Positions 333 to 43,026 of a stretch of 64,000 nucleotides of DNA are shown piece after piece. This stretch comes from a virus: positions 37,448-101,447 of IMG/VR virus record IMGVR_UViG_3300045988_023742. The stretch is one strand, 5' to 3'. Position numbers and translations under genes: made by a program. Below the pieces are notes generated by a model, which was not told where the DNA came from, did no database searches, and saw nothing but the letters and a program-made list of their open reading frames with translations. Each line of letters starts with the position of its first letter. The stretch's first letter is position 1.

Positions 333-3300
333 CTAACATGCTTTCATTGGATTACCATTTTCATCAAGAACCACAACACCATCTACTCTACAAGCTTGTC
401 TAAGCTCTTCTACAGAAGCTTTCAAATCAGCTTCTTCAGTATTACTTAAAGCAGCTTTAAGAACATTTGCTGTATAAAGTTCTCCTTGGTCATCTCTAAT
501 ACCTGCTTTCTCATAGGCTTTACTCATTTCTTCTGCTATTTCATTTATAACAGCTTCTCTGTTAAAGCTCTCTACAGTAGACTCTCTTTCTTCAGAACTT
601 TCTGATGTTGAACCTTCTTCAAAAGTTTCAGATACTTCTGTATCTTCTACTATATCTGAAGAAATATTATCACCAAAATACTGAAGAGACTGACCTTTAG
701 TACCAAGTTTATCTACCTTATGATATGTCATTACAGAAGTCTTTGTTTCATCAAAACTATCTGCCATATAGACAACTTGACCCTGACCAGTATTAATCTT
801 AATCATAGGAACAAATTGTCTTGACTTAGCCATCTTATTTTCTTTTAAAATGAAGTATTTACCATTTTCTTTATCAATCTTTGACAAATCTAAGGTAAAT
901 TCATTTCTAGCAACACCAGCCTGAATAGCAAGTGGCTTAAGAATATCTAAAACAGTTTTACTTTTAGCATCTAAGCCAAATCTCTTATTATCCAAGTGAT
1001 TAAGCATATACTGTCTAGCAAATGTTTCAGCATTGATGTTAAACTTATCTTCCATTATATCATTCATAAAGTCTACATAGCTTCTATCACCATCAGCAGT
1101 TGGTACTTTAATGTTCTCTTTAACTTCAGTAGGAGCAAGATTCATAAAAGCTTTAGGGCTAAAATTAAAACCTAACTTATAGAAGTTATATAAGAACAAA
1201 TCAGTAGCAATCTGTGAAGTCTCAGGATTTCTTGCTAAGTCTGCCCAGCTTTCTCTAATTTCATCCTTCATATAAGGAGCTAATCCTCCAATACCTTGGA
1301 TATTAATACTAATTTCATCAGTACTTTCACCAGTAGCAGGATTCTTAACTTCTTTAACTTCAGGAATCATATAAGCAAAGATAGGTATAGACTTCATTTG
1401 AGGATTAGCCTCTAAGTGATTAAGCAAATCTTTTGCAAACCATTTAGTGTAATACTCTCTTGTAGTCATTAAACCATGCTGAGTTTGTTTAGGAAGAGAA
1501 CCATTAAACTCACTTCTTTCTTGGTTACTTAACAAATAGACCATCATATCACTATGAATACTATTTATAGTATCAGCATCAAGACTTCCATAATTGACAA
1601 GTCCATTTAGAGTATTTCTAGCATTAACATAAGCCATCTTATTATAAGGGAAATATTTACTTAAAATCTCTAATGACTTTCTATTAGCATCAAACATAGC
1701 CTGCTCATAAGCAAATGGGTTACCCATCATAGTATCAAGATAATCTGAATTGCTCATAGTAGTAAGACTATTATCATCCATAATAGGAGAGTCAAGCTTG
1801 TCTGTCACTTCCATCTCAACATGACTTGCATCAGTACCAACTTCACTAAGATACTTTTGAACTTTAAGCTGCTGAGCATAAAGGTCACCAAATGTAGAAC
1901 CAACTGCATTAGATGCAGTAAACTTTGTTGATGTTACAAACTTAGATACATCATTAGCAACTGCTGAAATATCATTGAACAAATCAAGAACTTCAAGTTG
2001 TTCAGTAGCAAATGTATTGTTATCCATAACATTACTGCCTTTTTCTCTGAGAACTCTATCATTCAAAATATTCTTAGCAAGTTTATCCATAGAGAAATGT
2101 TCAGGATTTAGAGGCTCCTTTCTACTTCTAACAGATGCACCTTGATTCTTATACTTTTCTCTTACCTCTCTGATAGCAGTATCAATTCCTACACTATTAT
2201 TAAAGCTATATTCACATACCTCCTTGATAATAGGCTGATTAAACAGCATACCAATTTCAGTAGTAGTATAACCAATTCTAGCAAGAACTGCACCTGCATC
2301 AGCAGTAAGAGTATTAAGATTCATAAAGTTAAGAACAGGGTCTTTTACAGCATCCACAGAAGCAGACAGAAATTCAGCTACATTCAAGTCTACATCAACT
2401 CCATTAGGAGCATGAAGGAAGTCACTAAATCTACCATCACCGTAACTATGACCAGCAAACTCAATAGGCTTAGAAATCTTAAAAGACTTCATAAGACTAG
2501 CAAAAGCATGATTAGTATTTTGATTAGCAAATATACCAATAAGTTTACCTGCTACTTGATTCTGCTGATTATAAGTGATAATAGTCATAGGGTCAGAAGG
2601 GTCATAATTAGGCTCTGGGTCATTGGATTTATCCTTAGCTCTGTTATTAAGAGCTTCCCAATTAACCTTCTTATTATCATCTATAATACCCTCAGTACTA
2701 CCATATAGTAACTCTCTCATGATTCTAGCAGACTTAGAAGCATTAGCAAAACCACCTGGAGTAGTTCTTTGCTTCATAGTCTCTGGGTCCATCAATCTTT
2801 GTTGAATAAGATTAATAAGCATATTATTTCTAGCAGCTCTAGTATTTTCAAGCGGAGACTTATTAAAGTCATACTCTTCAAAATCTATAAGCTTAGAAGT
2901 ATCATCTGAGAATACAGCAGATAGTAGTGCATCAGTAGCTTCATCTGTAGATTGTTTCTTTAATGCTTTATATTCTCTTCTCATAAAGTAGAGCTTATCA
3001 ACATCAAAGTCAAAACCTGCAATAGTAGTTCCTTGAGCTGGTACTTTAATAGTACCTCCTGCTGTCTTTTGACTAAACCTCTTAACTCTAAGATTAAGCA
3101 TTGAATAGTCTCTCTCAGTTGGGATTCTATACGCTAGAAGACTTGTAGAACCAGGAAATCTATGCTCAAGTAATGAAATCTTCTTACCCTCAGATTCAAT
3201 CATCTTAAGAGTTCCATCAGGATTACAATATTCATTGAAATCAAGATGAACTTCATTACCTTCGCTATCCTTATATGATATGTCAAATGGAATCTCACAT

Positions 3301-6300
3301 TCTGCATAAAGAATATTTCCTTTACCATCTGTTACATACTTTAAATCTCCATCTTCTTCATAGCCTTTAATACCCATTGCAGAAACCTGAACAGCAGAAC
3401 CTCCTTTTATTTGCTGCTTATTCACAATCTTCTTGAACATACTGAAAGCCATAGCAGCAGCATCATGCTCCAAACCACCTTCAAACAAAGGCATAGCAAA
3501 CTTACCATTATCAACAGCATAGGCTAGAACATTGTCCATAGACTCTCTACTGTTATTAATAACACCTTGAATCAATTTCTCACTAAGTTTATTAGCATCT
3601 GAAATACCATCCTTAAAGCTATCAAATGATTCTAAGATGTTGGCAACTATCAATCCATTATAGAATGATACTAGGTTTCTACCATTGAGTTTAACTCTAC
3701 CATGATTTCCACCAAGATTTACAGTACCATCACCACCAATATAATTCATATAATGGTAGTCATCCATATTGATATTTGCCATAATAAGCTTTCTAACCTG
3801 TGTACCAAAGAGTTGAGAGCTATTAATATGCTCAGGAACATTAGTCTGTATTCTATAATCACCATAACTTAATTGGTGAACATAGGCTTTACTTAGAGCT
3901 TCACCTAGACTCTTTGCATCAGAAGCTTTTGAAATGTCAGTAGAACCAAATCCACCAACCTTAACAATTTTAGTAGAACCAACTAGGTCTACATTGTTAT
4001 CATCCATCCAATAAGCCATATCTCTAAGCTTACTACCTTTAGGTAAAAGTTCGGGAATTAACACTGCTTCAGCATACTTATGCTGAACTGGAATAATAAC
4101 TTTGTCCTTATCATTAAGAGCAAGCTTTTCATGAGTAAACATATAAGGTTTAATAGGCTGAAATACTACTGCCATAGATGCTATTTCAGCAAGTTTTTCT
4201 GATGGAATAGATTTTCCATTATAATCAACTTTAAGCTGTTCAATAGCCTCATATACTTTCTGCATTTCTTCAGTCCATTGTCCTGCCATACCCATTACTT
4301 TTCTATATGACCTAAGAGTTCTATAGCCTTGTCCATCAGTCAAAGTATTCTTTTTGTATGCATCATATACATCAGAATCTTTTCCATGAACAGCAGCAAT
4401 AGCTTCCATAAATTCAGGATTTGATTGTTCTGCATTTATATTAATATCATCAAAATAAACACATCTTTCAATACCATCCTCAGAGAATTTCTTACCATTA
4501 CTATCAATAGCTGAAAGACTTAATAGAGAACCAGGAGCATGAATCTCTTTGTATCTCTTCTGAAGGTCTTTAGTGCCTTTATAGAATGAAGTATCAATAG
4601 TCATGAGTTGAAGCTGATTAATAGTAGCAAACTTAACATTGTTATAAAACTCTGCAAGTTTCTCATCTAAGTTTTCAGATGTAACATCTTCTCCTAGATA
4701 AGTATATCTTTCAACCTCTACTTGCTTATTATTCCTATCAATCTCCTTTACCTTTACAGTTTCAAGAAGACCTAAGTTAGTTAACTGCTTCTTGAAATCT
4801 ATAAGAGCATCAGATAAATATGCAGATATAGCCTTCTTAACCTCTGTTTCAGTCGGTCTATCACTAAGCATACTAGAATACTTTCCTACTGTACCATCAG
4901 ATGCCTTATAATCTTTATTAAGGAATCCAAGAATACTAAAGGTATCTTCACTATCAGAAAAGTTTTCCACTTTACTATAGTTTCTAGAATCAAGCCATTC
5001 ATTAGTAGCTTTGACTAACTCTTGTCTTCTTCTTTCCTGTTCATAAGCATTATAGAGACCATCCATAATCTCTTCATTGCTGTATCTCTTAGCTCTAATA
5101 TATTTGCTTACACCGCTATCACCAAGAATAAATACAGGATATAATGCAGTATCAGCTTTATTGCTAAGTTCTTTGTCACTTCTGAACTCTGTAAGCATAT
5201 CAATCATGTGCTGTTTGCTAGTAAAGTTCTCAAAACTCATATCAGAGGTTCCTAAGAATCTCAGATAATCAAATTGAGCAGCAAATGTATCTTCTAAGCT
5301 TACATTAGTAGGAGTATCACAACACTTAAGCAATTCTTCAAGCCACTTATTTAATACCTTACCATTATAAGAGAAGAAAGGAGAGTCAAGATATTCATTA
5401 GCTAGGAAAGACCTAAGACCAGCTTTGTCATTTGCTTTAACATAGCTTTGAATCTTATCAAACTTATCACCCATAAAAGATGGATTTACCTGAGAGAAAA
5501 GAGTAATGTTGTTACCTTTGCTATCCTTATGTCTTACTCTAGACTCAAGTCTCAAGCCTTCTCTATTCTTGGTAATCATTTCATGTATCTTTCTGATTTT
5601 CTCCTCAAATACACCTTCTTTCCTGGAGTTCTGACCTTTAGCTCTAACCAATGACTTATATGGAATCTTTTCACCAGCTTCAAGTTTCTTCAACTGATTC
5701 TCAGATACACCATATTGAGCTAGTTCTTGGAGAGCATTAGTAAGTTTTCTAAGGTCTTTAGAATGATTCATTATCTCATCTAGAGTATCAGCATCCACTT
5801 CTACTCCAAGAGACTCTAAACTAGTTCTAAGGAACTCTCTTCTTTCAATAGAAGAGCCACCTCTAGAGTAGAACTTGCTTTGCTTTCCTCCTCCATACTG
5901 TTTTTGCTTATCAAAGATACTTCCAGTATTTTCCTTAGGCTGAGCAAGCCACTCATTTATCTGACTTAGAGTGTTCTTTAAGTTAGATACATTGACATTT
6001 CCTTTAGTATCAAATACAGAGGTCTTCTCATTAAGAGGCTTTCCAAGTATAATTCTAGACATAAAGGAACCTCCTAACAAATCTTCAACTCTATTAAGAA
6101 GTTTAGTCTTATACTTTCTAAGACCTTTCTTAGAAGCTTCCTTATCTTCAACAAGAATGGAATAAGGCTGAAAGTTCTTCTTGAAATCCCTAAAGAATTG
6201 TGTTCTAAGTTGAGGATTCTTTGTTAGAGCATCTAAAATTGGAATCATCCATACAGATTTAGCTTGTCCAGTTCTAGGATTTCTAAAAGCTCCCATCATT

Positions 6301-30338: not shown

Positions 30339-31124
30339 TTACTCAATGCCTTTAAACAATGTAGGCAAACTACCATATATAGGAAGCTTACCATCCCATT
30401 TATCAATCCACTGCTGCTTAAGAATCATAGGAGTCAAAGCCTGTGTTCTAAGTCTATTAGCTTCTGCTTCAGCCTGTGCTGCAACTACCTTTTTCTCTGC
30501 CTCTGCCTTTACTACAGCTAACTCATTCTGAGCCTTTTGTGCCTTTTGAATCGCAGCATTTTTGGCATTAACTGCATCAACAATAGACTGAGGATACTTC
30601 AATCCTGAAGTAAGTTGTTCTAGCTGAAAATTCTCCTTGAGCAATGCTTTAGACAGATGTGCTTCAATAGCCTTCTCTACCATATCTCTGTTTGATACAA
30701 TCTCATCAGTAGTATACTTATTGAGCTGGATTCTAAAGGCATCTTTTACATAGTTAAAGAGAGTTCCATTGATTACATCTTTCAGTTCCTTCCTATACTT
30801 CTTGAATACCTGAGGTGACTTACCATCAGCAATCTTCAATGAAATAGTAGGGTCAATACTAAACTCTGAACCATCCTTTGCATTAATTGTGAAAGCAGGA
30901 TAGTCTACTGTCTGGACATAAGTAGGATACTCATAAACCTGCTCAGTGAATGGATTATACCACACTGCACCAGTAACCAAAGATACATCATCTACACCCT
31001 TGTCAGAGCCATAGAGATTCACTTTAATACCTTCACAACCTGCATCTACTCTCTCATAACCACATGAGGACATTCCCAACATGGTAAATACTGCCATAAG
31101 GCACATAATTACTTTACTCTTCAT
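30339..31124 (-). CDS. SPFH/band-7 family lipoprotein
   Basis: Lipobox MLGMSSC and an Ala/Glu/Lys-rich coiled C-terminal half typical of SPFH proteins. Confidence 0.5.
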   Translation of the reverse strand: MKSKVIMCLMAVFTMLGMSSCGYERVDAGCEGIKVNLYGSDKGVDDVSLVTGAVWYNPFTEQVYEYPTYVQTVDYPAFTINAKDGSEFSIDPTISLKIADGKSPQVFKKYRKELKDVINGTLFNYVKDAFRIQLNKYTTDEIVSNRDMVEKAIEAHLSKALLKENFQLEQLTSGLKYPQSIVDAVNAKNAAIQKAQKAQNELAVVKAEAEKKVVAAQAEAEANRLRTQALTPMILKQQWIDKWDGKLPIYGSLPTLFKGIE

Positions 31125-31769: not shown

Positions 31770-32168
31770 TTAATCTCCAAGGATATTATAGCTAAAGCCT
31801 ATAGCACCCATATCATGAGCAATGAGTTCACAATGCTTCTTGATTCTAGCATCTTCTGACATTGTGTCCCATACTCTGATAAGTTTGCCTTTAACCTTGG
31901 CAATAACCTTGTTGTACTTAGGACTTGTTGATTCTTCAAGCATAGCTTCATAAGCTTCTTGAGACATCTTCAATACCTGTTTTGCAGGCATTGACTTTCT
32001 TGTCCTAAATGTAATAACCTCAGGACCTTTGTCCTTCTTTGATTTGTAACTCTTAAAGAGCATCTTATGCTCTTCAGTTAACTCTTCTGGTTTGTTTTCA
32101 GCCACCTGCTGGCTTACCATAATACTTCCTGGAAGTACTAAGATAAGACTCAATTTTGGTTCTATCAT
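31770..32168 (-). CDS. hypothetical protein
   Basis: 132-aa ORF. A terminator hairpin follows. Confidence 0.45.
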   Translation of the reverse strand: MIEPKLSLILVLPGSIMVSQQVAENKPEELTEEHKMLFKSYKSKKDKGPEVITFRTRKSMPAKQVLKMSQEAYEAMLEESTSPKYNKVIAKVKGKLIRVWDTMSEDARIKKHCELIAHDMGAIGFSYNILGD

Positions 32169-32171
32169 AAA

Positions 32172-32513
32172 TTAGTTGTAAATGTCATTGTCTGCACCCT
32201 TCTTCACCTTCTCCTTAAGGATTTCCTTTATAACTTCAAGGAACTTTGCCTTAGATATTGACTTTGCAGTATCCATAAGTGCCATAAACTCTTTTGGAGG
32301 CATAGCAATCATTACAGAGATGATAACAGTCGATACAAGAAGAGCACTCTTTCCAGAGAAGCCTTTAGTGAGGTTTACTACATCCTCAATCTTAACATTC
32401 TCTTCTTCGTACTGTTTCTTGTTCTCTTTATAAGCTGACTTAAATGCTTCAAGTACCTTCTTGATGTCTTCTTCATTGATGATAGACATCTGGTTTTTTT
32501 TGTTTGTTGCCAT
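32172..32513 (-). CDS. hypothetical protein
   Basis: 113-aa ORF directly downstream of the tRNA-like array. Confidence 0.45.
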   Translation of the reverse strand: MATNKKNQMSIINEEDIKKVLEAFKSAYKENKKQYEEENVKIEDVVNLTKGFSGKSALLVSTVIISVMIAMPPKEFMALMDTAKSISKAKFLEVIKEILKEKVKKGADNDIYN

Positions 32514-32563
32514 AATTTTGTTTATTAAAATTAATATGAAATTAATAAATGTTTTCTAAAAAT

Positions 32564-32675
32564 AGCTACTTAATTGATACATTTGAAGTGTATTGCATTA
32601 ACCACTATGCTAATTATCCATTCAGAAGAATAATATAGGACTTGAACCTATGAAATAATAGTATTGTAAGTAGCT
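32564..32675 (-). ncRNA. circularly permuted tRNA-like element with UCA anticodon, closed by module M7 helix
   Basis: Order on the minus strand: T-arm ATAGG-TTCAAGT-CCTAT, acceptor 3' ATTATTC, 8-nt linker, acceptor 5' GGATAAT, D-arm GCAT/ATGC, anticodon arm ATACA-CTTCAAA-TGTAT. Confidence 0.6.
32659..32671 (-). repeat. box M7 ACTTACAATACTA; helix 32667-32675 with 32564-32572
   Basis: AGCTACTTA is the reverse complement of TAAGTAGCT. Encloses the permuted tRNA-like element. Confidence 0.75.
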
Positions 32676-32679
32676 GAAG

Positions 32680-32805
32680 TAAGGCAGAGAAGAATCGAAC
32701 TTCTGTTACAGGTACTAAATTTTTATTAATATAAATTAGTATTGTAAGTATCATTAGATACTAATATTATTATAACCTGTGTCCTGACCACTAGACGACT
32801 GCCTT
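32680..32805 (-). ncRNA. tRNA-like gene (Glu-type scaffold) whose anticodon stem closes a 61-nt region carrying module M6
   Basis: AAGGCAG-TC-GTCT-AGTGGTCA-GGAC-A-CAGGT [61 nt] ACCTG-TAAC-AGAAG-TTCGATT-CTTCT-CTGCCTT-A. Confidence 0.6.
32737..32749 (-). repeat. box M6 ACTTACAATACTA; local hairpin 32757-32762 with 32747-32752
   Basis: AGTATC-TAAT-GATACT lies immediately 5' of the box. Confidence 0.7.
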
Positions 32806-32825
32806 ATGAAATTGGCACTATTCTT

Positions 32826-32899
32826 TATGCACTGATGGGATTGAACCATCTCTGATTGTACCAAAAAACAATTGTCCTAACCAATTAGACTAAACGCAA
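32826..32899 (-). tRNA. tRNA-Gln(UUG)-like with 8-nt anticodon loop, enclosed by module M5
   Basis: Stem ATTGT/ACAAT closes the loop TTTTTGGT (8 nt). D and T arms are canonical. Confidence 0.45.
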
Positions 32900-32903
32900 A
32901 ATT

Positions 32904-32916
32904 TACTATTGTAAGT
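32904..32916 (-). repeat. box M5 ACTTACAATAGTA; helix 32914-32921 with 32812-32819
   Basis: TTGGCACT is the reverse complement of AGTGCCAA. Encloses the Gln-like tRNA. Confidence 0.75.
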
Positions 32917-32925
32917 GCCAAAAAG

Positions 32926-33036
32926 TGGGGAAGGTAGGACTCGAACCTACATAGTGATAGTTTATGAAACCTATTGCTTATTGATTTAGTATTGTAAGTA
33001 TCTAAGATACTATTAAACCATTTTAGCTACTTCCCC
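32926..33036 (-). ncRNA. tRNA-like gene interrupted after the D-arm by module M4
   Basis: 5' part GGGGAAG-TA-GCTA-AAATGGTTTAA-TAGT. 3' part GTAGG-TTCGAGT-CCTAC-CTTCCCC-A. Acceptor is perfect; no clean 5-bp/7-nt anticodon arm. Confidence 0.5.
32987..32999 (-). repeat. box M4 ACTTACAATACTA; local hairpin 33005-33011 with 32997-33003
   Basis: AGTATCT-T-AGATACT lies immediately 5' of the box. Confidence 0.7.
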
Positions 33037-33053
33037 TTGTATAGTCACTATTT

Positions 33054-33126
33054 ATATACATGTTAGAATCGAACTAACTACACTTGAATTACAAATTCAA
33101 TGCTCTACCAAATGAGCTAATGCTAT
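33054..33126 (-). tRNA. tRNA-Thr(UGU)-like with weak acceptor stem, enclosed by module M3
   Basis: Perfect D, anticodon (TTGAA-TTTGTAA-TTCAA) and T arms. Acceptor ATAGCAT/ATGTATA pairs at only 4 of 7 positions. Confidence 0.45.
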
Positions 33127-33139
33127 TAGTATTGTAAGT
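33127..33139 (-). repeat. box M3 ACTTACAATACTA; helix 33137-33143 with 33043-33049
   Basis: AGTCACT is the reverse complement of AGTGACT. Encloses the Thr-like tRNA. Confidence 0.75.
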
Positions 33140-33165
33140 GACTGAATATCTGTAGACACTAAATT

Positions 33166-33239
33166 ATCACATTGTTGGAATCGAACCAACTACTATCTGC
33201 TTAAAAGGCTGATGCTCTAACCAAATGAGCTAAATGTTA
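33166..33239 (-). tRNA. tRNA-Lys(UUU), enclosed by box-helix module M2
   Basis: D-arm GCTC/GAGC, anticodon loop CTTTTAA, T-arm GTTGG-TTCGATT-CCAAC. Mismatches A29:A41 and A2:G71. Confidence 0.65.
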
Positions 33240-33242
33240 TAA

Positions 33243-33255
33243 TAATATTGTAAGT
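33243..33255 (-). repeat. box M2 ACTTACAATATTA; helix 33253-33260 with 33153-33160
   Basis: TAGACACT is the reverse complement of AGTGTCTA. Encloses tRNA-Lys. Confidence 0.75.
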
Positions 33256-33265
33256 GTCTAATGGT

Positions 33266-33296
33266 GAATGTAGGAGGTCTCTCTCCTCCTACATTC
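33266..33296 (-). other. perfect 12-bp GC-rich hairpin between units M1 and M2
   Basis: GAATGTAGGAGG-AGAGAGA-CCTCCTACATTC. No U-tract on either strand. Confidence 0.6.
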
Positions 33297-33299
33297 TAT

Positions 33300-33369
33300 T
33301 GATACTTGTTGTTGAACATTAATACGCTATTCTAATCTATGAAATACAGTTATAATGTTGTAAGTATCA
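33300..33369 (-). ncRNA. structured non-tRNA unit enclosed by module M1
   Basis: Outer helix TGATACTT/AAGTATCA and inner helix AACATTA/TAATGTT. No T-loop or D-loop signatures. Confidence 0.3.
33353..33365 (-). repeat. box M1 ACTTACAACATTA; helix 33362-33369 with 33300-33307
   Basis: TGATACTT is the reverse complement of AAGTATCA. Confidence 0.7.
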
Positions 33370-33377
33370 TTAGGTCC

Positions 33378-35201
33378 TTAAAGGACATTTTCTCTCACTA
33401 TGTCATATCTATTACTCCTGAACAATGACTGTAAAGGAGTATAAACATCCATAATATCCATATCTTTGAAGTTAGTTAAGAACTGCTCAATCTGTGCTAC
33501 ATTAGCAGGGATATAAATCATGTTCTCAATACCTTCAAATCTGTTGATAGAAGCACTTCTGAAGCCCCAATCACCATCTACATCAATAGCTACAATATAT
33601 GGCTTAAATCCAAAGTATCTTTGACACTTCATCATAAAGTCATTCATTGAAGCTTCAGGAGACCACAATGAGTTCCACTCACCATCACTGATGATAGTCC
33701 ATACAGGATAGTTCTTCAGAGCATCAAGTATCTGAGGGTTATTCTGACACTCCCTATGCAAATCATCAGGTATTTTACTTATGTTAGTACCACCACCTTG
33801 GAATACTGCATTACAGAAGTTCCTAATAGATTGATAGTTCTCACAGAAGCTCTTCTTAGGGTCAACAAAAGGAGTCTGCTTTACCTTTACTGTTTCACTT
33901 CTGATGAAAGAGTTTACAGAGTTATTCTTTCTGTCTATACAAGTATGCCAATGACTATTAGTATTGAAGAAACCAAGTAAGTTTCTACCATCATCATCTG
34001 GGTTCTTACATAAACATACAGAAGCTAAGAATGTAGCAAAGTTGAAAGGTTTACCTCTCATAGAACCTGAATCATCTATGATTACAAGACTATTATAAGG
34101 AAGATTGACCTTAGTCATGAAGGTTTCAAGCTTTAGCTCATCTACATTGTCATTACAGATGTCATTATATAGCTCTTTGAAATTAGTAGCTCCTGTATTG
34201 ACCTTAGCCTGCTTTGCAACTTTCTTCAACTTGATTTTATCCTCTTCTGTAGCTTGCCCCTGTCTAACTTTTTCCTCTAGAACTCTCTGTTCCTCTTGTT
34301 TAGACTCCTTGTACTTCTCCCATTCAGTGAGCCAAGGCTGGAACTTAGAATATTTATCCTTCTCAGTATCTTTAATCTTACTGTAAAGGATTCTATTCTT
34401 AACTCTAAACCTTGCCTGTGAAGGAAGCTTGTCAAACCAATCAATAAATGATTGTTTGTCAAACTCATTGATTTTACCTGTAGAGAATAGTACTGACTCA
34501 AGGTCACCATTGTAATCCTTTCTCCACTTCCTATAGTCCTTGAAGTTAGCATAGTTCTCATTTACTTCATACTCCCAACCCATAAGTTCTGAGAGCATTA
34601 TAAGCAACTTAACCTTATCTTCCATTACCTTTTTAGTCTCAGGAAGCATCTTGCTATGACCACTTCTTTTGCTTACTCTAGGAAGTGTCAAGAATTTAGC
34701 AACAAGAGTTTTATTGAAAGGATTATTACCATTGATAACCTTATAGAGATAGCTTGCAATAACCTCCCTATATTTTGCCTCAGCAAAGAGATTATGTATT
34801 CTAATAACTCTAGAGCCTTTAGTCTGTACTCTATTTCTGAACAGCAAATCAAAGCAAGTATATTCATTGAATAAACCTGCTTCAAGGAACTTCACAAATT
34901 GAGCTTGATGCTTATTCCACATCCAATCAAGAACTACTTGGAAACCTTCTCTATTGGCATTACCACCACTATCCTTCTTAACACCCTTAAAGATGTTATG
35001 CTGTCTAGCTGTAATATCACCAATTGAGAAAAGTAAACTAAAGAACATTTGCTTATGTTCTTTATTTCCTCGAACTTCTGACCAGCAAGCATCAAGTAAT
35101 GATGCATCAATTGTGTTGCCTACACTCTGAAAGAGTTTAAGGCAATTTCTTAATCCATAAAAAGGATTATCGTTACTTTTGTTTAACTTTACCTGTACCA
35201 T
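33378..35201 (-). CDS. vWA/MIDAS-domain protein with helical N-terminal domain (DUF2828- or TROVE/Ro60-like architecture)
   Basis: VIIDDSGSM (DxSxS MIDAS), later GGGTN and ISDGE. N-terminal roughly 370 aa carry the LLDACW...FFSLLFSIGD...DWMW...FDLLF pattern. Confidence 0.6.
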   Translation of the reverse strand: MVQVKLNKSNDNPFYGLRNCLKLFQSVGNTIDASLLDACWSEVRGNKEHKQMFFSLLFSIGDITARQHNIFKGVKKDSGGNANREGFQVVLDWMWNKHQAQFVKFLEAGLFNEYTCFDLLFRNRVQTKGSRVIRIHNLFAEAKYREVIASYLYKVINGNNPFNKTLVAKFLTLPRVSKRSGHSKMLPETKKVMEDKVKLLIMLSELMGWEYEVNENYANFKDYRKWRKDYNGDLESVLFSTGKINEFDKQSFIDWFDKLPSQARFRVKNRILYSKIKDTEKDKYSKFQPWLTEWEKYKESKQEEQRVLEEKVRQGQATEEDKIKLKKVAKQAKVNTGATNFKELYNDICNDNVDELKLETFMTKVNLPYNSLVIIDDSGSMRGKPFNFATFLASVCLCKNPDDDGRNLLGFFNTNSHWHTCIDRKNNSVNSFIRSETVKVKQTPFVDPKKSFCENYQSIRNFCNAVFQGGGTNISKIPDDLHRECQNNPQILDALKNYPVWTIISDGEWNSLWSPEASMNDFMMKCQRYFGFKPYIVAIDVDGDWGFRSASINRFEGIENMIYIPANVAQIEQFLTNFKDMDIMDVYTPLQSLFRSNRYDIVRENVL

Positions 35202-36976: not shown

Positions 36977-37258
36977 CTATAGTGTATTCTTCTCTGGCTG
37001 AACAGTAGAACTTCCACTATTCTTTCTGTTCTTATAGATAGTCTTAGGACCTACTGCTAAGAAACTTACACCCAATTTAGCTGGATTATTTGCAGGAGCT
37101 ATAACTTGATACCAATGTATATAACAGGCATTACTTGTTCTACCTTCAAGCTTAGTTGCAGCATATCTGCAAGCTTCTTTAATGTTATGAGGATTAGCTG
37201 TAATAGCCTGGACTAGAATATTATTCTCCTCATCAGTCCATCTTTTCTTTGTTATCAT
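36977..37258 (-). CDS. SANT/Myb-like DNA-binding protein
   Basis: KRWTDEENNIL...KLEGRTSNACYIHWYQ fits the Myb repeat W-T-x-E-E-D..L....GRT..QC..RW. Confidence 0.55.
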   Translation of the reverse strand: MITKKRWTDEENNILVQAITANPHNIKEACRYAATKLEGRTSNACYIHWYQVIAPANNPAKLGVSFLAVGPKTIYKNRKNSGSSTVQPEKNTL

Positions 37259-37368: not shown

Positions 37369-37499
37369 AGTTGGGGCTTTTTATTCTTCAAGTGTGTGCC
37401 CTCTTCTATTCCTTCTTCACACTTATGGCTATAGAAGTAACTAGCTAGCTTAGTACTTTAGATTCACCATACTCTTTACACTTTGCAACCCTCAAAGTG

Positions 37500-42951: not shown

Positions 42952-43024
42952 GGTCTTTTAGTATAAAGGTTTAGTATCCTTGCTTTGTAACCAAGGGATG
43001 TAAGTTCGAGTCTTACAGGGACCT
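42952..43024 (+). tRNA. tRNA-Thr(UGU)
   Basis: Acceptor GGTCTTT/AGGGACC, anticodon loop TTTGTAA. Confidence 0.75.
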
Positions 43025-43026
43025 CT

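Follow-up and report, generated by a model that had tools for sequence, protein, structure and literature searches.

The stretch analysed here, a window of 64,000 nucleotides (nt) from the virus record IMGVR_UViG_3300045988_023742 (positions 37,448 to 101,447), is DNA of a crAss-like phage. The closest relative among deposited genomes is cr116_1 (Steigviridae), the match being limited to an open reading frame (ORF) downstream of the locus described below. On its minus strand the window carries an array of seven small RNA units (32564-33368, length given as 860 nt), which begins 9 nt after the stop codon of a gene encoding a Ro60-like protein of 607 amino acids (33378-35201, minus strand). The array is conserved in crAss-like gut phages and combines tRNAs with tRNA-like RNAs, each of them provided with a helix and a conserved sequence box. 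Two of the seven units, here called gene 1 (32680-32805) and gene 2 (32926-33036), are interrupted tRNA-like genes that an earlier note on this DNA had singled out; we regard them as most likely phage tRNA mimics of the Y-RNA type rather than tRNAs with a new kind of intron. Ro60 and its Y RNAs are conserved from bacteria to humans, and their function in bacteria and phages is poorly understood.

A helix and box shared by the array units

The region was cut from box to box, in the window and in related loci (distinguished below by L numbers), to define the module that the units have in common. It consists of G-NN-ACT followed by the box TACAATACTA and paired to AGT-N'N'-C: the 3-4 nt that precede each box (G-NN-ACT) have their complement in an AGT-N'N'-C motif, and the conserved element is ACT joined directly to TACAATACTA. 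Seven copies of the box lie within 700 nt (32659-33365), all on the minus strand, and no box was found near the other 18 tRNAs of the window. In the hairpin type of module, represented by genes 1 and 2, the AGT-N'N'-C partner is situated a few nt upstream of the box. In the bracket type it lies beyond the payload, which may be a whole tRNA, a non-tRNA piece, or a tRNA-like unit that starts with its T arm. The brackets of the window are AGACACT/AGTGTCT (around a tRNA-Lys), GTCACT/AGTGAC (a tRNA-Thr), GGCACT/AGTGCC (a tRNA with an 8-nt anticodon loop), GATACT/AGTATC (a 46-nt payload), and AGCTACTTA/TAAGTAGCT (the T-arm-first unit).

An exact partner, AGT followed by the reverse complement of NNN, accompanies 79 of 87 non-identical boxes from 17 loci, against 9.3% under the null (binomial P about 1e-71), and each of seven different NN variants has its own complement as partner. 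The partner was located across the payload for 56 of 74 boxes and in the upstream neighbour for 18 of 74. Unconstrained minimum free energy (MFE) folds recover the helix in all seven window units. At the junction, one side of a 6-9-bp helix continues as 10 nt of conserved single strand and the opposite side as 1-12 nt. The module is a structure at the level of RNA: a covarying helix, the conserved single-stranded TACAATACTA, and then the payload's own stem.

These data bear on the possibility that the module merely punctuates transcription or processing, the box being a phage promoter or the helix an RNase processing stalk that frees tRNAs from a polycistronic precursor, with the interrupted genes as by-products of punctuation duplicated into tRNA genes. 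Between the strand 5' of the box and a partner 24-106 nt downstream there is covariation, so that this strand must be present in the transcript; because that strand is part of the helix, the box cannot be a promoter only, even though TACAAT resembles a -10 hexamer and crAss-like phages have a dedicated virion RNA polymerase for their early genes (PMC8375218). A scan for sigma-70-type promoters performed at chance (6 sites, 7.9 expected). Three intact tRNAs do have the box 0-5 nt ahead of their 5' ends, but the 18 other phage tRNAs do without it, and the linkage is to the Ro60-like gene, not to tRNAs generally. The interrupted genes, moreover, are conserved, with invariant tRNA bodies and compensatory changes, and we consider punctuation quite unlikely.

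Viral contigs were scanned with a box-plus-helix 16-mer and with double-box searches, coding repeats being filtered out. Most matches of the box scan were in-frame coding D/T-Y-N-T repeats, recognizable by spacings in multiples of 3 and a lack of T-loops, and were removed; such T-Y-N-T false positives occur in the unrelated viral contigs L081, L098, L115, L119, L120, and L130 and in many others. Two further candidates were also rejected: a hammerhead-like CTGATGA in the hairpin loop of L003, which is not conserved, and an N4-type promoter hairpin, since most boxes pair across the payload and not with the upstream neighbour. A putative likeness of the box to the 3' strand of vertebrate Y RNA stems, or to the 5' end of U1 snRNA, carries no weight in the argument.

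The bracketed units, all on the minus strand, differ widely in what they enclose. Unit 1 (33301-33368) comprises GATACT (33363-33368) with the box ACTTACAACATTA (33353-33365), a 46-nt non-tRNA payload, and AGTATC (33301-33306); the bracket partner lies at +46, the helix is present in the MFE fold, and the unit is kept in L002-L004, L054, and L093. In unit 2 (33154-33259), AGACACT (33253-33259) and its box (33243-33255) precede an intact tRNA-Lys(TTT) (33165-33240; called by ARAGORN, Rfam tRNA 55 bits), and AGTGTCT (33154-33160) completes a bracket helix of 7 bp. This tRNA-Lys is found in the Ro-linked array alone and not in the two main tRNA clusters of the phage; the arrays of L002-L004 are without it, and the corresponding bracket there holds a 40-nt non-tRNA payload. 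Unit 3 (33044-33142) runs from GTCACT (33137-33142) and its box (33127-33139) through a tRNA-Thr(TGT) (33055-33126) with an imperfect acceptor (Rfam tRNA 51.3 bits) to AGTGAC (33044-33049), and its bracket helix appears in the MFE fold. The tRNA has a 1-nt deletion in the 3' acceptor strand and was missed by ARAGORN; a normal second tRNA-Thr(TGT) is encoded in the window at 42952-43025. Unit 5 (32814-32919) consists of GGCACT (32914-32919), the box ACTTACAATAGTA (32904-32916), a tRNA (32825-32900), and AGTGCC (32814-32819), and again the bracket helix was found. Its tRNA has an 8-nt anticodon loop and is reported by ARAGORN as "tRNA-??? (tttg)" (Rfam 44.6 bits); the ortholog in L004 is a normal tRNA-Pro(TGG), and that in L054 differs once more in loop length. 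The tRNA of the window may be of the frameshift type, or it may be drifting within the Ro-linked array.

Interrupted and permuted tRNA-like units

Gene 1 (minus strand) is a tRNA-Glu-like scaffold in which 61 nt replace the anticodon loop. As the earlier note had described, it has perfect acceptor (AAGGCAG/CTGCCTT, 7 bp), D (GTCT-AGTGGTCA-GGAC), and T (AGAAG-TTCGATT-CTTCT) arms, and the stem CAGGT (32775-32779)/ACCTG (32709-32713) closes exactly 61 nt. The hairpin AGTATC-TAAT-GATACT (32747-32762) lies in this segment, together with the box ACTTACAATACTA (32737-32749). The native sequence is called neither by ARAGORN nor by Rfam at the gathering threshold; once a 7-nt loop is substituted for the 61 nt, ARAGORN reports a tRNA-Glu, in agreement with the scaffold proposed. 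The further statement that no U33-anticodon context can be recognized needs amending, in that the stem is better drawn as ACAGG/CCTGT, followed by TTATAAT with a U33-like position; yet this is not a conserved anticodon, because orthologs differ there (ATA or AAT). The body of gene 1 is invariant across six distinct orthologs, the closing stem has undergone a compensatory change from C-G to U-A, and the flanks of the insert are AT-rich and drift between orthologs. The structure is 95.7% paired, compared with 31-54% in slid controls, and includes one compensatory pair. In L002, L004, and L031 a different interrupted tRNA-like gene stands in place of gene 1, and its insert-closing helix varies from GAAGT/ACTTT to AAAGT/ACTTT.

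Gene 2 (minus strand) is interrupted near the D-loop by hairpin and box, and the two inserts are thus at non-identical positions, as had been noticed. Among the interrupted genes of all loci, insertion sites include the D-loop region, the anticodon loop, the anticodon stem, and the variable loop. The acceptor GGGGAAG/CTTCCCC, the T arm GTAGG-TTCGAGT-CCTAC, the hairpin AGTATCT-T-AGATACT (32997-33011), and the box (32987-32999) were all found as first described. The proposed order of a D arm and then the module holds in part: the module does lie near the D-loop, but TAGT, which had been taken as the 3' strand of the D stem, overlaps the hairpin arm. Just 5' of the anticodon stem, AAGCA is invariant in all orthologs and can close the D stem as GCT/AGC; drawn in this way, the gene has the module in the D-loop or at the junction of the D and anticodon arms. 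Nor does the anticodon region fold only as ATAG/CTAT; a stem of 5 bp, in which one base is bulged, can be drawn below a canonical 7-nt loop, TTCATAA (32962-32968), with the anticodon CAT. This anticodon is CAT in most loci and TTT in L028, L035, and L054. Like gene 1, native gene 2 receives no call from ARAGORN or from Rfam at the gathering threshold. In an ARAGORN deletion scan 483 of 871 constructs were called as tRNA, with many anticodons, and no unique deletion restored a canonical tRNA; with so many constructs called, the scan is uninformative about an intron boundary. A second helix in the MFE fold of gene 2, TGGTTTA/TAAATCA (7 bp), is not conserved in orthologs and was rejected.

Unit 7 (32564-32675, minus strand) is a circularly permuted, YrlA-like tRNA-like unit in which the T arm comes first. 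It is composed, in order, of AGCTACT(TA) (32667-32675; box 32659-32671), the T arm ATAGG-TTCAAGT-CCTAT (32635-32651), the 3' acceptor strand ATTATTC (32628-32634), an 8-nt loop (32620-32627), the 5' acceptor strand GGATAAT (32613-32619), the D arm (32595-32610), the anticodon arm (32577-32593, loop CTTCAAA), and (TA)AGTAGCT (32564-32572). The MFE fold gives exactly this order and the closed 7-bp acceptor stem, and Rfam detects the D/anticodon half only, as a T-armless tRNA (32563-32619). Two compensatory pairs were found in the acceptor hairpin of the unit 7 family. The anticodon arm is absent in six loci, and in the four loci that retain it the anticodon is TCA, GTT, TTT, or GAT. A geometry-based scan of all loci yielded 15 distinct T-arm-first units with 12 different acceptor hairpins, all of them paired at 7 of 7 positions; all 15 lie inside a perfect 7-10-bp bracket, against 1.9% in a shuffled control. 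MAFFT alignment of the permuted units misplaced 3' ends where the anticodon arm is absent; well-aligned helices alone were counted, and detection was based on geometry.

Orthologous arrays are present in relatives whose downstream flanking protein is 95%, 79%, and 58% identical to that of the window, and in some ten more crAss-sized contigs. The comparison of orthologous loci that the earlier note had recommended finds genes 1 and 2 conserved together with their inserts in 6-7 independent loci. Gene 2 has seven near-identical orthologs that retain the insert. The unit content of the arrays varies between relatives, the tRNA-Lys being confined to the window. In L083, a 172-kb viral contig, the array (3700-4200) lies upstream of the Ro60-like gene and includes two tRNA-likes with complete anticodon arms and a hairpin-box in the variable loop, flanked by the A-rich direct repeats CAAAAAAT / ACAAAAAT.

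Some of these features, namely the direct repeats around the L083 inserts, the damaged look of certain array tRNAs (the acceptor deletion in tRNA-Thr, the 8-nt anticodon loop), and the differences in unit content (the window-only tRNA-Lys, the replacement of gene 1 in L002, L004, and L031), would fit decaying tRNA pseudogenes struck by a mobile repeat of the MITE (miniature inverted-repeat transposable element) kind, or a DNA-level recombination site, without function as RNA. In L002-L004, however, gene 2 differs by 2-3 of 111 nt, insert included, where the flanking protein is 58-95% identical. The arms of the helix covary, unlike transposon ends, which are conserved in sequence; the module always has the same orientation; and the system is kept beside proteins that have diverged to about 25% identity. 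Because of this conservation and covariation, which contradict the random decay expected of pseudogenes, we reject that explanation as very improbable. Judged from the sequences, decoding nevertheless appears not to be under selection: arms are lost, anticodons change between orthologs, and gene 1 has no anticodon.

Group I introns in tRNA genes are about 200 nt or more in length, possess a group I core, and interrupt the anticodon loop. The inserts described here, of about 30-61 nt, have no Rfam intron match and occupy varied sites, and the earlier view that they are too short for group I introns stands. Split, intron-containing, and permuted tRNA genes that depend on a bulge-helix-bulge (BHB) motif are known from archaea and from Cyanidioschyzon merolae (review PMC4090602). 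The window resembles those systems in its varied interruption sites, in placing a 3' half before a 5' half, and in the helix that joins the ends. It differs in being from a bacterial virus, in having a dispensable or variable anticodon arm, and in a module that also flanks intact tRNAs and non-tRNA payloads. The junctions of the module lack the BHB geometry (3-nt bulge, 4-bp helix, 3-nt bulge), and for gene 1, gene 2, and the permuted unit no precise excision or rejoining was found that gives a canonical tRNA with a conserved anticodon.

By analogy, the module could still be a signal for splicing or circularization that guides an endonuclease and a ligase, much as the archaeal BHB does, and so yields functional tRNAs: the hairpin inserts would be excised as introns, and the bracketed T-arm-first units would be circularized, after which RNase P and 3' processing would open them. 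In topological terms the hairpin and the bracket are equivalent, both setting the 3' end of one segment beside the 5' end of another, but the distance from helix and box to the tRNA body varies from 0 to 23 nt and is not fixed, so that there is no common cleavage register. In many units the anticodon loop is canonical (7 nt, U33, purine at position 37), and where the module splits an anticodon stem, in L069 and L072, the stem covaries from one side of the junction to the other (ACG|GC..GCCGT versus ACG|GG..CCCGT); gene 1, on the other hand, has no conserved anticodon after any excision, gene 2 is not restored by a unique deletion, anticodon arms are dispensable, and anticodons differ between close orthologs. 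The 7-bp acceptor stems of all 15 permuted units would suit RNase P, and the encoded CCA and Thg1-family gene of L134 (described below) are also in keeping with functional tRNAs, whereas the bracketing of non-tRNA payloads (unit 1; L083) is not. No RNA ligase or splicing endonuclease was found among the ORFs adjoining the array, a whole-proteome scan for them not having been made. We think splicing or circularization of this kind unlikely. The short introns removed by an unknown activity that the earlier note had envisaged are accordingly not favoured, given a module that brackets intact tRNAs, non-tRNA payloads, and T-arm-first units and given anticodons that are unconserved.

The linked protein and its counterpart in PhiCrAss001

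In each of the array loci whose length allows adjacency to be judged (16 of 16), a homolog of the 607-amino-acid protein (59-98% identity) adjoins the array on its upstream or its downstream side; 12 of these loci were retrieved by the DNA box alone. The syntenic region of cr116_1 is without the array, the box, and both proteins (the 607-amino-acid type and the TROVE type). The protein has a helical N-terminal part and a C-terminal vWA domain with the MIDAS (metal ion-dependent adhesion site) motif DDSGSM, and its family numbers 179 representatives at 50% clustering. Pfam finds the vWA domain only, and only in some distant members of the family. A weak match to phrog_850, "RNA-binding protein", was obtained; a direct sequence search of the PDB with the single protein found nothing, and tblastn against GenBank phages gave no match. 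The latter null is instructive: in deposited crAss-like phages the TROVE version is present, or neither version is.

An AlphaFold2 model based on an alignment of 80 sequences (pLDDT, the predicted local distance difference test, 88; pTM, the predicted template modeling score, 0.82) superseded one from a shallow alignment (pLDDT 70). Its best match among solved structures, and the sole full-length one, is the Rsr protein of D. radiodurans (2nvo, E 1.7e-5); the top three matches of the earlier, poorer model were Ro60 (2i91/1yvr, Xenopus Ro60). The family profile matches Ro60, RO60, Rsr, and the phage protein phiRo60 through the MIDAS/vWA segment, at matching residue numbers. Aligned by hhalign with the family of the PhiCrAss001 TROVE protein Gp96, the 607-amino-acid family scores 94.5% probability (E 7.6e-8) over the whole vWA domain.

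PhiCrAss001 expresses this TROVE-domain protein among its early genes, and it has been considered a possible component of a ribonucleoprotein (PMC8375218; review PMC10136315). The Gp96 gene (MH675552 96870-98288, 472 amino acids) is syntenic with the gene for the 607-amino-acid protein, and genes for an HKD nuclease, a hydrolase, an SPFH protein, and small ORFs follow downstream in both phages. After Gp96 comes an unannotated stretch of 905 nt (MH675552 95965-96869; L132). It contains at least two interrupted tRNA-like genes: in one (Rfam tRNA 46.6 bits) 82 nt are inserted at the anticodon, and in the other (GGGGATG...CATCCCC) the insert measures about 100 nt. A related box, TACTTCAA, occurs four times, and there are hairpin helices as well as bracket helices such as AGACT...AGTCT and ACAACACT...GGTGTTGT. 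In this gap a cmscan search for Y-RNA models returned tRNA and chance matches only. The RNAs have no annotation in the PhiCrAss001 record, and no description of them was found in the papers searched. The two phages thus share a syntenic gene followed by interrupted tRNA-like genes, helices, and a related box; they differ in that Gp96, a recognized TROVE protein of 472 amino acids, can be aligned in the vWA domain only and is accompanied by a different box sequence.

The same arrangement recurs elsewhere. PhiCrAss001-type arrays follow a PF05731 TROVE gene, and in L136 and L138, which are of this type, box-interrupted tRNA-like genes and bracket helices lie just downstream of it. Distant members of the 607-amino-acid family (about 25% identity) are flanked by such RNAs as well: L133 has a T-arm-first unit in a perfect 9-bp bracket, and in L134 the gap upstream of the Ro60-like gene holds three tRNA-likes interrupted by ACTTACAA(A/T), some of which encode CCA. 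A Thg1-family gene, of the tRNA 5'-end repair or editing type, is located two genes upstream of the distant Ro60-like gene in L134, these features having been noted at 516-1331 and 2564-3000.

Relationship to Y RNAs and proposed function

The nearest known parallel is the YrlA class of Y RNAs in bacteria and phages, which is encoded beside rsr and has the order T arm, closed acceptor-like stem-loop, and D arm, with ends that form the Rsr-binding stem; the YrlA RNA of M. smegmatis has a 7-bp acceptor-like stem, is cut by RNase P, and receives CCA (PMC4201824). The window RNAs are likewise encoded directly next to a Ro60-like gene. Unit 7 (32564-32675) has exactly the YrlA layout, and the T-arm-first order with paired ends is found in that unit and in 14 further distinct units. 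Genes 1 and 2 depart from YrlA in being of normal tRNA order with the stem closed as a hairpin, so that mimicry is shared and topology is not. Other differences are the window motif, TACAATACTA beside a G-NN-ACT/AGT-NN-C helix instead of GNCGAA; the presence of up to seven tandem units, of a handle that also brackets bona fide tRNAs, and of many full anticodon arms; and a partner protein that is not recognizable as TROVE by sequence.

A second parallel is the Thermus phage phiLo, whose phiRo60 binds two adjacent Y-like RNAs (Yrl1, Yrl2) and assembles with the host polynucleotide phosphorylase, PNPase (PMC12135203; PDB 9KOP, 9L5Y). Common to both phages are a Ro60-like protein with HEAT repeats and vWA in phiLo's case, adjoining Y-like RNAs, and a stem-bulge-stem with a conserved bulge motif. 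Unlike the window, phiLo has two RNAs with the CGAA motif and a clear TROVE protein, and the main text of PMC12135203, in which tRNA is mentioned twice, was not found to describe its RNAs as tRNA-like. We found no paper that links Crassvirales to Ro60 or Y RNAs, or that describes permuted tRNA genes in phages.

We therefore propose, as a reading that we consider probable, that the array is a Ro60-like ribonucleoprotein system whose partner RNAs are tRNA-derived and Y-like and carry the helix and box as a handle. Seven small RNAs would be co-transcribed in the 3' region of the gene for the Ro60-like protein, each made up of a payload (a real tRNA, a tRNA-like scaffold, a T-arm-first unit, or a short non-tRNA piece) and the common handle, in which a 6-9-bp helix and then the single-stranded TACAATACTA on one strand would lead into the stem of the payload. 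The handle would close as a hairpin where it sits inside an exposed site of a tRNA-like body (the anticodon loop of gene 1, the D-loop region of gene 2) and stay open-ended where it brackets a whole payload. It is the putative binding site of the adjacent protein, which we infer to bind it without any splicing of the RNA, and the array RNAs would be the phage counterparts of Y RNAs. Genes 1 and 2 would then encode YrlA-like mimics of another topology instead of precursors to decoding tRNAs. The earlier suggestion of tRNA mimics in which the module replaces the anticodon region applies literally to gene 1; gene 2 has an intact anticodon arm and carries the module near the D-loop. What argues for mimics of the Y-RNA type is the conserved array, the helix and box tag that its units share, and the constant Ro60-like gene neighbour. 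As to what such RNAs might do downstream, the tRNA-like part may recruit or distract factors that recognize tRNA in early infection, such as RNase P, modification enzymes, PNPase, or anticodon nucleases.

Several observations weigh against this proposal. The handle contains no CGAA/GNCGAA Ro-binding motif, and cmscan of 32000-34000 at E<=10 returned tRNA and chance matches only, without any Rfam Y-RNA model. The 607-amino-acid protein has no Pfam match, and TROVE is not reached; its sequence alignment to TROVE proteins is limited to the vWA domain, template modeling (TM) scores to Ro60/Rsr are low (0.30-0.35), and the closest full-length folds in a library of predicted viral structures are uncharacterized vWA/DUF7788 proteins (TM 0.45-0.67). 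No obvious array was found with one distant family member, P0245 (L135). The canonical anticodon loops, the covariation between L069 and L072, and the encoded CCA of L134 would equally suit precursors of working tRNAs. The label "Ro60-like" was chosen with these points in mind: the Rsr fold and the vWA homology support it, yet the Pfam TROVE model is unmatched and the nearest folds are of the vWA/DUF7788 kind. The protein is accordingly not a proven member of the TROVE family, and we infer that its N-terminal domain is truly homologous to that of Ro60.

The protein and a processing role could also be combined. The module might be a phage-specific signal for cutting and joining RNA, with the Ro60-like protein as scaffold or chaperone, genes of the gene 2 type being spliced and T-arm-first genes being circularized and re-opened at the acceptor. 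If this were so, which seems to us rather improbable, the products would be working tRNAs with fast-evolving anticodons (TCA, GTT, TTT, GAT) that outrun host anticodon nucleases or support the recoding of stop codons, and neither protein-dependent tRNA splicing nor permuted tRNA genes would have had a precedent in a bacterial virus.

Should the array instead be a Ro60-like ribonucleoprotein system with Y-like partner RNAs, the most abundant phages of the human gut would carry a large and previously unannotated Y-RNA-like system with a new recognition module, in tandem arrays where true tRNAs stand beside permuted tRNA-like units and two topologies of tRNA mimic. It would account for the unannotated 0.9-kb gap beside the early-expressed TROVE gene of PhiCrAss001, a phage whose host is culturable. 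Anticodon loops that change fast on a conserved scaffold suggest a role in an arms race; the array RNAs may be decoys for host defences that target tRNA, or replacements against them, which would tie Ro60 ribonucleoproteins to phage-host conflict.

Outside the grammar of the module, two strong hairpins were noted on the minus strand. One, between units 1 and 2 (33270-33292), has the form GTAGGAGG-agagaga-CCTCCTAC; in relatives its sequence changes and its pairing is kept (TATAGGAGG...CCTCCTATA in L002-L004, TATAAGAG...CTCTTATA in L028). The other, GTCCTTTAAGGAC (33374-33386), spans the stop codon of the gene for the 607-amino-acid protein. Among neighbouring genes, one of the SPFH/band-7 family (30339-31124, minus strand) is conserved about 2 kb downstream of the array, as is Gp91 in PhiCrAss001. 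A 93-amino-acid ORF (36977-37258, minus strand) encodes a Myb-like DNA-binding domain (Pfam E 9e-6), and a similar gene precedes the TROVE gene in L136 and L137, two contigs of the PhiCrAss001 type.

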